IMG/VR virus record: IMGVR_UViG_2778260992_000004
Coordinates: 1-4,560 of that record
Direction: 5' to 3' (one strand)
DNA: 4,560 bases
Source: a virus
Lineage: Duplodnaviria; Heunggongvirae; Uroviricota; Caudoviricetes
The notes under the pieces were generated by a model. It was not told the origin of the DNA, searched no databases, and worked only from the letters and a program-made list of their open reading frames with translations. Both the position numbers and the translations under genes were made by a program. Numbering within the stretch: the first letter of the stretch is position 1; each line of letters opens with the position of its first letter. Positions 162 to 3,662 of the stretch are shown here, one piece after another.

Positions 162-175
162 TTATGGAGAAAATA

Positions 176-706
176 ATGGAGCTAAGAAATATTACGCGTT
201 ATTACCCTGAAGAGATGCCTTATGGCGAAGGCATTCAGTATTTCCGTAGTGAAGACGGGCAGGATTTTTATGAATCACTGGATAAATTCACGAAGAAATA
301 CAAGCTGTGCACGCATCCTGAAACTGGCGTTATTTATTCAATGGCGGAAGACGTATCCCGGCTTTATCCGGCAGGTTTCACCATTGTGGAAGTGGATGAA
401 CTACCGGATGGCTTTTGTATAGAGGCGCGCTGGTATTATAAAGATGGTGAAGTACTGCCGGTTCCTGTTGATTACAGACTGCTGGCTGAGTCGGAACGAG
501 CACGTCTTACGGCGATTGCTGAACGGGAAATATCCGACAAGAAAACAGATTTACTTCTGGGAATAATTAATGATGGTGAAAAAGAAATGCTGAAATTATG
601 GCGGATGTACATCAGAAATTTAAAGGGTATTGATTTTAATCTCATTCATGATAAATCGTCATTTGATAGTATTAAATGGCCTTGTGAACCTGAGAATACA
701 CATTAA
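176..706 (+). CDS. Tail fiber assembly protein / chaperone (Tfa, P2 gpG family), copy 1
   Basis: 176-aa ORF ending TAA 704-706. GGAGA at 166-170 sits 5 nt before ATG 176. Starting at 176 gives an N-terminus (MELRNITRYYPEE...SEDGQDFYE) colinear with the downstream paralog (MLNIKNFKPYTPEN...SEDGQDWYE). The C-terminus ...SFDSIKWPCEPENT carries the W-P-x-x-P-type end I recall for Tfa proteins. In-frame ATGs at 140 and 164 are less likely because 140 overlaps the fiber gene end. Confidence 0.85.
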   Translation: MELRNITRYYPEEMPYGEGIQYFRSEDGQDFYESLDKFTKKYKLCTHPETGVIYSMAEDVSRLYPAGFTIVEVDELPDGFCIEARWYYKDGEVLPVPVDYRLLAESERARLTAIAEREISDKKTDLLLGIINDGEKEMLKLWRMYIRNLKGIDFNLIHDKSSFDSIKWPCEPENTH

Positions 707-723
707 ATATCAAAGGATAAAAT

Positions 724-1254
724 ATGCTGAATATTAAGAATTTTAAACCTTACACACCAGAAAACATGCTCGTAAATGCATCTTACCTTATGTCTGAAGA
801 CGGACAGGACTGGTATGAATGTCAGAAATTATTTTCTCCTGATACGGTTAAAGTCGTTTATGACAACAGTAATGTAATTATCAGTTTTAGTCAGGATGTT
901 TCCTCCTTGTTTCCTGTTAACGCGAGTGTGGCTGAAGTTGCAGTCAGTGCAGTTCCTGCAGAGATGTCAATTGATGGAAACTGGTTGTATATTGATGGAA
1001 AGATTGTGCCTAAATCTATCAATTATCAGCAGAAAGCAGAAGAGCATCGACGCTGGTTGTATTCCCGTGCTGCAGATATCACTTCTGACTGGAAGGCTGA
1101 ATTGATTCTTGAAATTATCAGTGATGATGACAAAGAACAATTGAAGGCATGGCTGCTTTATGCCAGGGCACTTAAATCGCTTGATTTCAGTCAGGTTACT
1201 GATGAATCGTCTTATAATGCCATTGAGTGGCCAGCACCTCCACAGAACACCTGA
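724..1254 (+). CDS. Tail fiber assembly protein / chaperone (Tfa, P2 gpG family), copy 2, diverged tandem paralog
   Basis: 176-aa ORF ending TGA 1252-1254. AAGGA at 712-716 sits 7 nt before ATG 724. Shared motifs with copy 1 include SEDGQDWYE, WLYIDGKIVP versus WYYKDGEVLP, DKEQLKAWLLYARALKSLDF versus EKEMLKLWRMYIRNLKGIDF, and a C-terminal IEWPAPPQNT. Identity is roughly 35-40 percent by eye. Confidence 0.85.
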   Translation: MLNIKNFKPYTPENMLVNASYLMSEDGQDWYECQKLFSPDTVKVVYDNSNVIISFSQDVSSLFPVNASVAEVAVSAVPAEMSIDGNWLYIDGKIVPKSINYQQKAEEHRRWLYSRAADITSDWKAELILEIISDDDKEQLKAWLLYARALKSLDFSQVTDESSYNAIEWPAPPQNT

Positions 1255-1309: not shown

Positions 1310-2785
1310 ATGTCCGGACTACATGGTGTTGAAACCATTGAACTGACGACAGGCACGGTTGCCGTGCAGACCATCTCCACAGCAGTGATTGGCCTGGTGG
1401 GGACAGCACCGGACGCCTCTGGTGGCGTGTGCGCTTCCGGCACAGCCGGCTCCTGGCTGCTGGGAACGGCGCTGGATTTCACGGCGAAACAGGAAGGTCG
1501 GGTCGGTAATAAGATTTCGGTTGTTGCCGTGGCTGCCACAGAACAAAACGCGCAGACAGTGGCATCGCTGAAAGGCACAACCCTGACGATAACGCTGGGG
1601 ACGGACGAACACAGCCAGATTAACGCCACGGCTGACCGTGTGACTGAAGTGGTGAATGCGCTGGGGGATTCGCCTGTGACGGCGGCTGTCAGCACCCTGA
1701 ATGCAGGAGGTGCTGAAAATAAAGTTGTGGCGCCGTTCAGCCTGACGTTATCCGGCGGAGAAGATGAGGCGTTCCCGGTCAATACACCGGTGGTGGTGGC
1801 AGGGGCCATTACTCAGGCAGGAAAACTGGGCACATCCGGAACATTATATCCGGCCCTGCGAGATATTTTTGACCAGACTGGTGCGCTGGTGATTGTGGTG
1901 CGCGCAGAAAGTAAAACAAAGACGAAAGAGGCCGAACAGCGTGCGGCGGTGATTCAGGCCATGGAGGCGCTGACAGAAAGTAAGGGCGTGACAGGCTATC
2001 AACCGCGCATCCTCATTGCCACGGGGTACAGTGAGGATGATGGCGTGGCAAAGGCGCTGGAAACGTATGCCGTGAAGCTGCGGGCTGTGGCCTATATTGA
2101 CTCGCCTTCAATGGCAACGCCGCAGGATGTGGTTCAGCGGCGCGCGTCATTTGGTGGGCGTGTGGAGCTGCTGCGTCCGCGCGTGTCAGTGACGGATGAC
2201 AGCGGGCAAACGATATTTCGTCCATATTCGGCTCGTGCTGCCGGGCTGCGTGCCCGTATTGATTACGAAAAAGGGTGGTGGTGGTCCAAATCAAACCAGG
2301 ACGTGATGAATATCACCGGTCTGGAGCAGGTGGATACGTTTATTCTCGGGGAGCAGAACTGCACGGCAAACCTGCTGAACATGGAAAATATCTCCACCAT
2401 TATTCGCCATGACGGTTTTAAACACTGGGGTAACCGTCTGTGCACATCCCACAGTCAGTGGCGTTTTGAGCCGGTACGCCGCACTGCAGATGTGATTGAG
2501 GACAGCATCCAGGAGGCCATGCTGCCTTATGTCGATCGCCCGCTTGATCGGGATGTGGCAGACGACATTCTTGGCAGCATTAATGCCTATATGCGTCAGC
2601 TTAAAAATCTGGGCGCGATCCACGGTGGCAGTGCATGGCTGAACGATGAACTGAACACTGCAGAAACCCTGGCGGCAGGGCAGTTGTATATCGATTATGA
2701 CTTTGGGCCGAAGTCACCACTGGAGCGCCTGACACTGCGGGCAATGATTAACAATAAACTGGCGCTGGAGGAACTGACGGTATGA
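1310..2785 (+). CDS. FI: Contractile tail sheath protein (P2 gpFI family)
   Basis: 491-aa ORF. GGGAGA at 1299-1304 sits 5 nt before ATG 1310. The N-terminus MSGLHGVETIELTTGTVAVQTISTAVIGLVGTAPDA and C-terminal region ...AETLAAGQLYIDYDFGPKSPLERLTLRAMIN resemble the P2 sheath as I recall it. The stop TGA 2783-2785 overlaps the next start. The ORF-track start at 1160 is only an upstream open extension across the terminator. Confidence 0.93.
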   Translation: MSGLHGVETIELTTGTVAVQTISTAVIGLVGTAPDASGGVCASGTAGSWLLGTALDFTAKQEGRVGNKISVVAVAATEQNAQTVASLKGTTLTITLGTDEHSQINATADRVTEVVNALGDSPVTAAVSTLNAGGAENKVVAPFSLTLSGGEDEAFPVNTPVVVAGAITQAGKLGTSGTLYPALRDIFDQTGALVIVVRAESKTKTKEAEQRAAVIQAMEALTESKGVTGYQPRILIATGYSEDDGVAKALETYAVKLRAVAYIDSPSMATPQDVVQRRASFGGRVELLRPRVSVTDDSGQTIFRPYSARAAGLRARIDYEKGWWWSKSNQDVMNITGLEQVDTFILGEQNCTANLLNMENISTIIRHDGFKHWGNRLCTSHSQWRFEPVRRTADVIEDSIQEAMLPYVDRPLDRDVADDILGSINAYMRQLKNLGAIHGGSAWLNDELNTAETLAAGQLYIDYDFGPKSPLERLTLRAMINNKLALEELTV

Positions 2786-3300
2786 TGACGGGTGAAAAAA
2801 AACGGTTGCGCGCATGGGCGTTATTTCTTCCTGGCGGAATCCGCCTTCAGGGGGCACATGAATACACGCCACCTGCCATTAATATCACGACAGTGGATAT
2901 CAAAACTGGCGCAATGGATGCACCGGTGGCAGTGGATGACGGCATGGAAGCGCTGACCTGTTCGTTTAAGATTTATGGTTATGATGTTGCCATGCTTACG
3001 CTGCTGGGATTACAGGCCGGGCTTTATTCGCCGGAGATTGTTGTCCGCCAGGCTTACCAGGTGGGGAATGCGACCAGCGGGCAGGTGGAAACTCTGCAGG
3101 GGATGATCACCAGTATCACGCCGGATGCGCGTCCCGCAACGTCACAGGCAGAGGCTTCGGTGACGGTGGAAATGTCACTGAGTTATTACCGTCAGGCTGT
3201 TGACGGTGTGGAAACCATCTGCATTATTCCGGAGGAATTTGTGCGTCGTATTAACGGCGTTAATGTTCTGGCGGATCTGAAAAAAATCATCCGGGTTTAA
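2782..3300 (+). CDS. FII: Tail tube protein (P2 gpFII family)
   Basis: 172-aa ORF starting at ATG 2782 within ATGATGA, which overlaps the sheath stop; GGAGG at 2767-2771. Size and position immediately after the sheath fit the tube protein, and the C-terminal region ...SYYRQAVDGVETICIIPEEFVRRINGVNVLADL resembles the P2 tube as I recall it. Confidence 0.9.
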   Translation: MMTGEKKRLRAWALFLPGGIRLQGAHEYTPPAINITTVDIKTGAMDAPVAVDDGMEALTCSFKIYGYDVAMLTLLGLQAGLYSPEIVVRQAYQVGNATSGQVETLQGMITSITPDARPATSQAEASVTVEMSLSYYRQAVDGVETICIIPEEFVRRINGVNVLADLKKIIRV

Positions 3301-3346: not shown

Positions 3347-3359
3347 AAAGGAGATGCTT

Positions 3360-3662
3360 ATGTCGGAAAAAAACAGTGTTCCTGCCAGCAGCGTGGAAAT
3401 TGTGTTATCCGTGCCGTATGTCACCGCATCAGGACAGACGATCACGCACGTCACTATGCGTGCGCCCACTGTCCGTGATCGTCTGTTGCATCGCCGGAGT
3501 AACAAACCGGAAGCAGAGGCTGATCTGGATATGATTGCCGGTCTGTGTGGGATGGACGCGGCAGACATGATGAACATGGAAGCGTGTGATTACCTGGCCC
3601 TGGAGCGTCAGTTTAATGTTTTTTTGCTGCCGCCGGTCCGGCGGAAGAAGAAAGCATCCTGA
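3360..3662 (+). CDS. E: Tail assembly chaperone E (P2 gpE family), zero-frame product
   Basis: 100-aa ORF. AAGGAG at 3348-3353 sits 6 nt before ATG 3360; the in-frame ATG at 3354 abuts the SD and is unlikely. The small acidic protein lies between tube and tape measure and contains a T7G slippery run near its 3' end, as in the P2 FETUD operon. Confidence 0.8.
   Translation: MSEKNSVPASSVEIVLSVPYVTASGQTITHVTMRAPTVRDRLLHRRSNKPEAEADLDMIAGLCGMDAADMMNMEACDYLALERQFNVFLLPPVRRKKKAS

Follow-up and report, generated by a model that had tools for sequence, protein, structure and literature searches.

Two diverged tail-fibre assembly genes in direct tandem behind a single fibre tip in an Escherichia coli prophage

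INTRODUCTION

Tail-fibre assembly (Tfa) proteins such as Mu gpU, P2 gpG and lambda Tfa have two domains, a beta-sandwich at the N-terminus and, at the C-terminus, a helical hairpin that ends in an invariant WP motif. The N-domain of the Mu protein attaches to the fibre tip and remains in the virion (PMC9608196), and PMC11915804 cites the LPS-binding study of North & Davidson 2021. These phages have one Tfa per tip. Each Tfa is usually regarded as the partner of one tip, and host-range engineering of phages and tailocins moves tip and chaperone together.

Two Tfas of different specificity at one fibre locus are found in the Mu G, P1 C and Fels-2/SEN8 cassettes and in the remnant of one in SfIV. 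In these invertible cassettes, the second Tfa is inverted and lies with its own alternative tip beside a Gin/Cin-type invertase. P2 also has an extra gene, in the Z/fun moron slot, between the chaperone and the sheath operon. T4 gp57A + gp38, two chaperones of a single fibre, and the gp38 adhesins of T2/S16 are precedents for several accessory proteins at one fibre tip and for one that stays there as the adhesin (PMC9608196). T4 gp57A and gp38 are mutually unrelated and both are required.

Here we describe two homologous Tfa genes that follow one fibre tip in the same orientation. They are carried by the first 4,560 nucleotides of IMG/VR virus record IMGVR_UViG_2778260992_000004; this whole stretch is called the window below.

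RESULTS

The window derives from an E. coli prophage whose head module is lambda-like and whose tail module is P2-like. The P2 framing given to the locus in the initial annotation therefore holds for the tail and fails for the head, and the element is not canonical P2. The parts of the window described below lie on the + strand. The window opens with the 3′ end of a P2 H-like fibre gene (3-161), recognized from its frame-3 translation and 100% identical to the fibre end of loci L001 and L004. The full fibre of the source prophage, encoded at 8185-9438 of L004, has 417 aa and matches PF12571; 52 residues of its tip fall within the window. Read in frame 3 of 3-161, the fibre C-terminus ends in SADNIGGVYYKQAQIYIDGAWRSVSG followed by the stop codon; the distal tip encoded there ends in SGIYVQETGSRSADNIGGVYYKQAQIYIDGAWRSVSG, also before the stop. 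The first Tfa gene, tfa1 (176-706), is separated by a 17-nt spacer (707-723) from the second, tfa2 (724-1254). Each encodes 176 aa. The initial annotation had this length right but placed the start of the first gene at 164. The product begins at ATG 176, with GGAG ahead of it at 166-169, in agreement with the RefSeq call in STEC711, whereas an alternative in-frame ATG upstream, at 164, would yield 180 aa. The spacer holds the tfa2 Shine-Dalgarno sequence AAGGA (713-717). A promoter and terminator scan found neither signal in 707-723, no + strand promoter-like site upstream of tfa2 and no terminator between the two genes. The same kind of scan placed an intrinsic terminator-like hairpin with a T-run at about 1272-1299 (1272-1292 is also given), and the fibre/chaperone operon is closed by this hairpin. 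It is followed by the tail sheath gene (1310-2785; PF04984 and PF17482; a RefSeq CDS in STEC711) and then by the tube and E genes. tfa1 and tfa2 would be co-transcribed in the late fibre operon, with one ribosome-binding site each.

Both products belong to the family of Mu gpU, P2 gpG and lambda Tfa by Pfam, PHROG, 5YVQ_B and predicted fold. PF02413 (Caudo_TAP) scores were 59 bits for Tfa1 and 87.8 bits for Tfa2 (gathering cut-off 22.1 bits). phrog_136, 'tail fiber assembly protein', matched both proteins over their full length (E = 1e-49 for Tfa1), and the sequence of Mu gpU (5YVQ_B) was matched with E = 4.7e-12 by Tfa1 and E = 1.2e-20 by Tfa2. A BLASTP alignment of the two proteins with each other spans their full length at 37% identity (E = 1e-42). 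These results confirm the earlier claim of two diverged, same-strand Tfa genes of 176 aa each at about 176-1254, including its estimate of roughly 35-40% identity; that one copy might fall outside the Tfa family was also considered there, and both are PF02413 proteins. Tfas of this family are usually 173-181 aa long. AF2 monomer models were obtained with pLDDT values of 88.8 (Tfa1) and 92.7 (Tfa2). In both models, the strands fall within residues 1-96 and the helices span about 100-151, and 5YVQ_B was the only significant PDB fold match for each (N-domain TM 0.75 for Tfa1 and 0.84 for Tfa2; rmsd 1.8 Å for the Tfa2 model). The predicted architecture of both proteins is thus the two-domain one of Tfas, a Mu gpU-like N-terminal beta-sandwich and a C-terminal helical domain.

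Direct head-to-tail pairing of Tfa genes is rare. In most relatives of the lineage there is a single Tfa; the pair is therefore a variable state and not, as the initial annotation had allowed for, a fixed arrangement of this lineage. Of 129 E. coli genomes that have the tail module, about 11-12 show the tandem. Carriers of the prophage include STEC711 and the GCA_036633575.1 strain. Two classified surveys gave one direct tandem in 94 evaluable loci and one in 80 loci, the latter sample being Tfa2-biased, and both hits are the same contig of the lineage. Inverted Tfa neighbours were recorded at 11 of the 94 loci and at about 40 of the 80; Tfa pairs of inverted orientation with an invertase next to them occur commonly. 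The arrangement recurs: a 66% identical Tfa2 homologue also stands second, after a tip and a first Tfa that differ from those of the window. A search of complete E. coli genomes and IMG/VR for the second tandem lineage (L017), made to learn its context, matched the Stf N-terminus only, and no close relative of the L017 first Tfa was found in those collections. Among the isolated phages of the phage collection, none carries the pair, the best matches being 76% (Tfa1) and 45% (Tfa2). Literature searches on two, second or additional tail-fibre assembly genes found no description of a direct pair. The 'additional tail fiber assembly protein' of SfIV (PMC3851460) was rejected as a published precedent since its gene is convergent and lies beside an IS, as were Fels-2 and SEN8, which have inverted pairs with an invertase.

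Tfa1-type chaperones go with the fibre tip type of the window (tip1) in about 40 loci on several backbones. Where a Tfa was at least 66% identical to Tfa1, the tip was at least 79% identical to that of the window, apart from one group with a second tip type, and the Tfa1-type protein was the sole Tfa in all of these loci except L063. E. coli A19, A10 and L079 retain this tip, and their one Tfa gene is of the Tfa1 type. Elsewhere, Tfa1 is 76% identical to a Rac-SA53 Tfa and 76-84% identical to other Tfas. Sequence covariation thus shows Tfa1, which lies in the canonical position of Mu gpU, P2 gpG and lambda Tfa, to be the probable cognate assembly chaperone of the tip encoded directly upstream. 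Since tip1 is accompanied by a single, Tfa1-type chaperone in dozens of phages and in three close relatives, Tfa2 would not be needed for this tip.

The situation of Tfa2 is different. Homologues 44-55% identical to it are the only chaperone after tips that are 73-100% like a type designated tip2, with the pattern ...TGIIVQxTGxxSADNIGGIYYRxxQYxxNGxW...S[IL]. The tip2 type is related to, but distinct from, the tip of the window, the H tip being about 50% identical to it. Besides the H tip, no tip2-like sequence was found in the 20.5 kb of prophage read. Whereas Tfa1 directly follows its own covarying tip, Tfa2 follows tfa1 here and its homologues follow tips elsewhere. The initial annotation had asked whether the second copy normally travels with its own fibre gene; those homologues do, although no such fibre accompanies tfa2 at this locus. 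No locus in the sample has tip1 with a Tfa2-type N-domain as the sole chaperone. The tight pairing of tip and N-domain across the sample suggests that Tfa2 may bind tip1 poorly.

The right-hand side of the locus was compared among relatives. Across the lineage, the genes of last Tfas all end in ..WP..PQNT and the stop codon, followed by the same terminator, whereas the tandem tfa1 does not. The final codons of tfa2 (..PQNT, stop) are thus common to the single Tfa genes of relatives, and the hairpin at 1272 likewise follows the single Tfa there. For the majority of E. coli relatives, the stretch homologous to the window begins at 1240. The region from about 1240 on is the conserved right-hand flank of an exchangeable cassette, and tfa2 occupies the resident last-chaperone position of the lineage. 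The second copy had been assigned to the slot that holds Z/fun in P2. However, single-Tfa relatives have no gene in that slot. tfa2 resembles Z/fun in being an extra gene between chaperone and sheath operon; unlike Z/fun, it encodes a structural-module homologue, has no promoter of its own and lies in the resident chaperone position. It therefore lacks the marks of a P2-type moron, which is an unrelated gene with its own expression signals. Similarity between the spacer ahead of tfa2 and the spacers ahead of sole Tfa2-type genes was too weak to place a left breakpoint.

The state of tfa2 was assessed from the L004 allele and the diverged L012 allele, between which the tfa1/tfa2 junction is homologous. 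tfa2 showed a dN/dS of 0.24 (34 non-synonymous versus 31 synonymous changes, Fisher p = 2e-7), as compared to 0.15 for tfa1 and 0.16 for H; dS of the neighbouring genes was 0.36-0.98. The reading frame, length and ribosome-binding site of tfa2 are conserved. A public collection indexes the exact Tfa2 protein in 52 blocks and the 84% variant of it in 28. This substitution pattern shows tfa2 to be apparently under purifying selection and not decaying. The suggestion that the second copy is the relic of a lost fibre cassette is thus upheld as to origin, the covarying tip being absent, and, if decay is implied, contradicted by an intact gene under apparent purifying selection. Some of the apparent constraint could come from lineages where Tfa2 is the sole chaperone. 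dS was unequal across the two halves of tfa2 (0.62 versus 0.11), which points to a recombination mosaic. One frameshifted tfa2 is known.

A rather unlikely, though not negligible, explanation of these observations is that tfa2 is a neutral hitch-hiker, a stranded chaperone with no present role that persists through its recency or through re-import of intact alleles. The dS mosaic inside tfa2 and the frameshifted copy would be expected in this case, and so would the missing covarying tip, the single-Tfa relatives with the same tip and the minority status of the tandem. However, the dN/dS of tfa2 was measured between alleles that share the tandem junction and whose neighbouring genes have diverged substantially at synonymous sites; frame, length and ribosome-binding site have been kept; and the fibre gene, too, is fragmented in the prophage with the sole broken tfa2.

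The initial annotation had also proposed that the second copy serves a fibre encoded elsewhere. A second, lambda-Stf-like fibre (PF08400 and PF03406, 667 aa) is indeed encoded about 6 kb downstream, after gpD. In relatives with a Mu-like tail, such a fibre is encoded directly downstream of Tfa2-type genes, and some DUF4376 chaperones bear a Tfa2-like N-domain. The Mu-like adjacency is, however, explained by the gene order fibre-tfa-stf. The Stf-like fibre has a different tip, its C-terminus showing no detectable similarity to Tfa-dependent tips, and in the relatives examined it always has its own adjacent DUF4376 gene; the two are also present in single-Tfa relatives. STEC711 combines an stf pseudogene with an intact tfa2. 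Given the lack of tip similarity and the dedicated DUF4376 gene, Stf was rejected as the client of Tfa2, a role that we regard as improbable.

In-situ tandem duplication of one tfa followed by divergence is very improbable. Equal length (176 aa), common orientation, adjacency and full-length alignment are what such an event would leave. However, 173-181 aa is typical for the family, and the two genes share no DNA repeat beyond one 26-nt motif. Moreover, each copy is nearer to outside relatives (76% for Tfa1; 52-66% for Tfa2, to other prophage Tfas) than to its neighbour (37%), which argues against recent duplicates. That tfa1 and tfa2 are two chaperones probably acquired separately is well supported by these identities.

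An invertible host-range switch (Mu G, P1 C or Fels-2 type) that has since decayed is equally improbable. Inverted Tfa neighbours are common in the family, and the best Tfa2 match among isolated phages is a gpG-like protein (44.7%) of Fels-2, which bears an invertible tail-fibre cassette and an invertase. However, the orientation here is direct and an alternative tip segment is missing. Inverted repeats were not found in 1-1400, nor was a gix-like site anywhere in the window when up to 3 mismatches were allowed. A direct pair cannot arise by simple deletion of an invertible cassette, and no inverted tfa2 with a tip fragment and an invertase was seen at this position among the loci examined. 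A BLASTP search with a Gin query detected no Gin-like invertase in the source prophage and its relatives (L001-L023, covering about 10 kb to each side of the pair); the same query did find invertases in many of the comparison loci. A remnant of an invertible segment was rejected on the absence of gix-like site, inverted repeats and invertase, in line with the initial view that the pair is not an inverted cassette.

DISCUSSION

The locus departs from each of the known arrangements. To the single Tfa per tip of Mu, P2 and lambda, it adds a second full-length Tfa on the same strand. Tfa2 is related to chaperones found in invertible cassettes; unlike these cassettes, the pair is direct, with one tip, and has neither crossover sites nor a serine invertase. 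In contrast to T4 gp57A and gp38, the two Tfas are homologous, and the second is dispensable for the tip in related phages.

We propose that, through cassette recombination, the cognate chaperone came to be followed by a non-cognate one, which has been kept as an accessory chaperone or a tip-binding subunit; we give this account an even chance. A unit made of tip1 and tfa1 would have been inserted ahead of tfa2 by recombination of host-range cassettes. One crossover, on the left, would lie in the fibre shaft; that on the right would lie where the last chaperone gene ends, at its invariant Trp-Pro codons and the terminator. The outcome would be a tfa2 without its own tip, left in the resident chaperone slot of the lineage. 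The order of these recombination events is one that we infer from the present arrangements.

As to function, Tfa2 would be dispensable for folding tip1 and yet has been kept intact. Our preferred reading, already listed among the initial possibilities, is that it serves the same fibre, either as a second chaperone or as a tip adhesin. Tfa2 may act on the H fibre, the tip of which is about 50% identical to its usual partner, as an auxiliary folding chaperone, as an alternative tip-bound subunit, or as both. The tip-bound variant is suggested by the fact that Mu-type Tfas stay on the fibre tip and that Mu and P2 Tfas reportedly bind LPS. A further step, in which the two Tfas compete for the same tip and both stay on mature fibres to give mixed caps with two LPS specificities, seems doubtful to us. 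If true, mixed caps would amount to constitutive, inversion-free hedging of host range, as opposed to the Gin/Cin DNA switch.

The comparison places putative recombination boundaries at concrete positions, the left one in the fibre shaft and the right one at the invariant WP codons and the terminator. The N-domain, the putative tip-binding part, goes with the tip, whereas the C-terminal domain is swapped freely; both points are of use for the design of chimeric fibres. Here, apparently, a cassette exchange in nature has left behind a non-cognate chaperone that selection has retained in the operon. Should Tfa2 bind this fibre too, receptor specificity would gain a further layer, set by the identity of the chaperone and requiring no DNA switch, a role proposed so far only for the Tfas of Mu and P2.

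Two Tfa-family genes follow the fibre gene

The window begins with the C-terminal end of a tail-fibre protein (1-161, frame 3, + strand), whose translation reads ...SGIYVQETGSRSADNIGGVYYKQAQIYIDGAWRSVSG*. Two open reading frames of 176 aa each follow on the same strand, tfa1 at 176-706 and tfa2 at 724-1254. The initial annotation had described them as tandem tail-fibre assembly chaperone (Tfa) genes and this is confirmed by the reading frames together with the database and structure matches, though Tfa1 begins at 176 and not at 164. Tfa1 and Tfa2 align from end to end with 37% identity (BLASTP, E = 1e-42). Each exceeds the Pfam Caudo_TAP threshold, matches phrog_136 end to end and has the Mu fibre chaperone gpU (5YVQ chain B) as its sole PDB sequence match. 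The AlphaFold2 models are confident (pLDDT 88.8 for Tfa1, 92.7 for Tfa2) and alike, with an N-terminal beta-sandwich and a C-terminal helical hairpin. 5YVQ_B is again the one structure that either model matches significantly (TM 0.75 for Tfa1; TM 0.84, rmsd 1.8 A for Tfa2). Overall, tfa1 and tfa2 are two ordinary Tfa-family genes in a genuine, rare and variable arrangement.

The 17-nt spacer between the two genes carries an AAGGA ribosome-binding site, and a terminator scan found no terminator in it. The fibre/tfa unit is closed by a hairpin followed by a T-run at 1272-1299. Tfa2 is thus predicted to be co-transcribed with the fibre and separately translated. Downstream lie the tail sheath (1310-2785), tail tube (2782-3300) and E tail chaperone (3354-3662) genes. 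Translation of the sheath gene begins at ATG 1310, 3' to a GGGAGA motif, in agreement with RefSeq annotation in relatives; a 541-aa ORF listed from 1160 is its in-frame upstream extension, overlapping the 3' end of tfa2. Close to its 3' end, gene E carries a T TTT TTG heptamer (3620-3626), from which the -1 frame is open to about 3797, the tape-measure gene starting just downstream at about 3781. This corresponds to the P2-type E/E+E' programmed frameshift arrangement. From 450 to 1350, a stretch that runs from the 3' part of tfa1 through the whole of tfa2 and into the spacer downstream, G+C is 32-43%, as compared to 52-61% in the sheath gene. Such low values are typical of exchanged host-range modules.

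The source prophage carries a second fibre

An E. coli assembly (GCA_036633575.1, locus L004) matched the window exactly over the segments checked, 1-200 and 101-1300. The likeness to P2 drawn in the initial annotation holds for the tail genes (order V-W-J-I-H-Tfa-FI-FII-E-T-U-X-D) but not for the phage as a whole, since the head module is lambda-like (Phage_portal_2, S49 protease, HDPD decoration protein, Phage_cap_E, Packaging_FI) and a lambda Stf-type second fibre is present. This fibre (667 aa; PF08400 phage_tail_N and PF03406) and a DUF4376 protein, its adjacent chaperone, are encoded directly after gpD, about 6 kb downstream of the tfa pair (L004 16497-19066). Among E. coli relatives, the Stf-type gene is absent in A19, which has a single Tfa.

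Some DUF4376 proteins have their C-terminal part fused to a Tfa2-like N-domain. In the Salmonella protein P0016 (233 aa), the N-terminal domain is 43% identical to residues 1-111 of Tfa2 (window 724-1056). Therefore, the tip-binding N-domain is a module common to two chaperone families. Many E. coli DUF4376 genes also resemble window 784-938 in their DNA, at about 71% identity.

Direct Tfa pairs are rare and variable

Among 94 evaluable loci retrieved from GTDB species genomes and IMG/VR with a Tfa-family query, 80 had a single Tfa, 11 an inverted neighbour and two a further copy at a distance of over 300 nt; one, from the window's lineage, was a direct tandem. The same contig was the one direct tandem among the 80 IMG/VR loci most similar to Tfa2, about half of which were single and about half inverted, many of the latter with an invertase in reach. 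A more distant sample of 46 loci gave no inverted pair and two direct tandems (L270 and L271), the rest not being formally classified as single. These two IMG/VR contigs have the order fibre, Tfa-like (179 aa), Tfa-like (195 aa), with a 534-aa fibre in L271 (4304-7091). Because they belong to an unrelated virus, direct Tfa pairs have arisen more than once. That virus encodes a large putative family-B DNA polymerase, as judged by eye.

Literature searches returned no published description of a direct Tfa pair. In SfIV (the 'additional' Tfa), as in Fels-2 and SEN8, the second Tfa is inverted, unlike in the pair studied here. The view that the pair is not part of an invertible cassette was upheld: neither inverted repeats (1-1400) nor a gix-like site were found in the window, and no invertase was found within about 10 kb on either side of the pair in the source prophage and its relatives.

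Nor is the pair fixed in its lineage, a state that the initial annotation had said would count against its reading. Both genes occur in only about 11-12 of 129 complete E. coli genomes sharing the tail module. STEC711, which also carries the pair, is 97-100% identical to the window over the fibre-tfa1-tfa2 block, with parts of the sheath down to 85-93%. In A19, A10 and L079, a Tfa1-type gene is the only Tfa behind a tip of the window's type. In all four relatives inspected among those whose homology starts at 1240, the stretch from the fibre gene to the same terminator holds a lone Tfa of a third type (180-181 aa). In A19 (L002 1731-4873), the 'phage tail protein I' gene encodes 855 aa rather than 196 aa, and an additional 178-aa hypothetical gene lies upstream of the fibre gene; this may be a further baseplate-attached receptor-binding module.

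Each chaperone type has its usual fibre tip

The C-terminus of the upstream fibre was extracted for each Tfa in 150 loci. Some 40 Tfas with 66% or more identity to Tfa1 sit behind a tip at least 79% identical to that of the window, on fibres of 260-620 aa, some in lambdoid, Rac-like prophages. Tfa1-type is the only Tfa at all of them except L063, from the window's own lineage. Exceptions to the pairing were four Tfa1-type loci behind a second tip type, and L094, whose fibre end is frameshifted. Tfa2 homologues (44-55% identical) are sole chaperones behind a different, related tip (...V[ML]TGIIVQ[DE]TGxxSADNIGGIYYRxxQYxxNGxWxxxxS[IL]), which shares about 50% identity with that of the window; at one of these loci, L010, the tail is Mu-like. 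No tip of this type was found in the 20.5 kb of prophage read.

In Mu, the variable N-domain of Tfa binds the fibre tip and stays on it in the virion, while conserved C-terminal helices drive trimerisation (PMC9608196). The sequence data fit this picture, the N-domain moving with the tip and the C-terminal part being mosaic. The single Tfa of A19 and A10 consists of a Tfa1-type N-domain followed by the last 50 residues of the Tfa resident in the lineage. In the IMG/VR contigs L087 and L088, a 479-aa fibre ORF matches the window's tip (100% over the last 52 residues, 95.7% over the last 230 aa) and the Tfa is only 76-77% identical to Tfa1, so that, at fine scale, a tip is not always exchanged along with its chaperone.

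The pair is best explained by cassette recombination

A recent duplication was rejected, as both genes have much nearer relatives in other places than in each other: identity is 76% between Tfa1 and a Rac-SA53 Tfa, and 52-66% between Tfa2 and other prophage Tfas. The DNA common to the two genes is one 26-nt motif.

The last chaperone gene in the lineage always ends in ..WP..PQNT*, followed by the same hairpin; Tfa2 has this ending and the tandem Tfa1 lacks it. The vast majority of the 131 E. coli records that match the window are homologous to it from 1240 onward, a point within the final five codons of tfa2. An exchangeable host-range cassette therefore seems to recombine at a fixed right-hand boundary, formed by the invariant Trp-Pro codons and the terminator. 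Tfa2 thus sits in the resident chaperone slot, with the window's tip and tfa1 in front. Modular cassette recombination best explains the pair's origin. The tip and tfa1 would have been inserted ahead of a resident tfa2, or the tip-tfa1-tfa2 block would have arrived whole. Both routes are plausible because, in another lineage (L016-L019), a 66% homologue of Tfa2 is also the second gene of a direct pair, behind another tip and a first Tfa that likewise differs (191 aa).

tfa2 is under constraint and may act on the same fibre

Homology at the tfa1/tfa2 junction can be recognised between L004 and a diverged group (L012), which points to a single origin of the tandem in both. Between the L004 and L012 alleles, dN/dS is 0.24 for tfa2 (dS 0.36), 0.15 for tfa1 (dS 0.55), 0.16 for H, the fibre gene (dS 0.98), and 0.09 for the sheath (dS 0.70). 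The 34 non-synonymous and 31 synonymous differences in tfa2 depart from neutrality (Fisher test, p = 2e-7). The exact Tfa2 protein is indexed in 52 blocks of a public collection and an 84% variant in 28. Judged from these alleles, tfa2 is not decaying. As caveats, the two halves of tfa2 have a five-fold difference in dS, which shows past recombination; one tfa2 copy is frameshifted, in a prophage whose fibre gene is fragmented too; and only a minority of the lineage has the tandem.

Because the window's tip occurs with Tfa1-type genes alone in many phages, Tfa2 should not be essential for its folding. Our preferred reading is that Tfa2 has an accessory function on the window's own fibre, as added folding capacity or as an alternative tip-bound subunit, on the basis of the predicted co-transcription, the constraint and the fact that the usual client tip of Tfa2 belongs to the same family. 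Against this reading, the tight pairing of tip and N-domain in our sample suggests that Tfa2 may bind the window's tip poorly. The main rival is that Tfa2 is a neutral hitch-hiker. It is unlikely that Tfa2 serves the Stf-like fibre, whose C-terminus is unrelated to Tfa-dependent tips, which is accompanied by a DUF4376 gene of its own at every locus seen with a complete Stf gene, which is present in single-Tfa relatives too, and whose gene is a pseudogene in STEC711, where tfa2 is intact.

The Tfa proteins of Mu and P2 reportedly bind LPS in a strain-specific manner, a result attributed to North & Davidson in 2021. Since Mu Tfa also stays on the fibre tip, a second Tfa cap could change receptor recognition, if Tfa2 is tip-bound.
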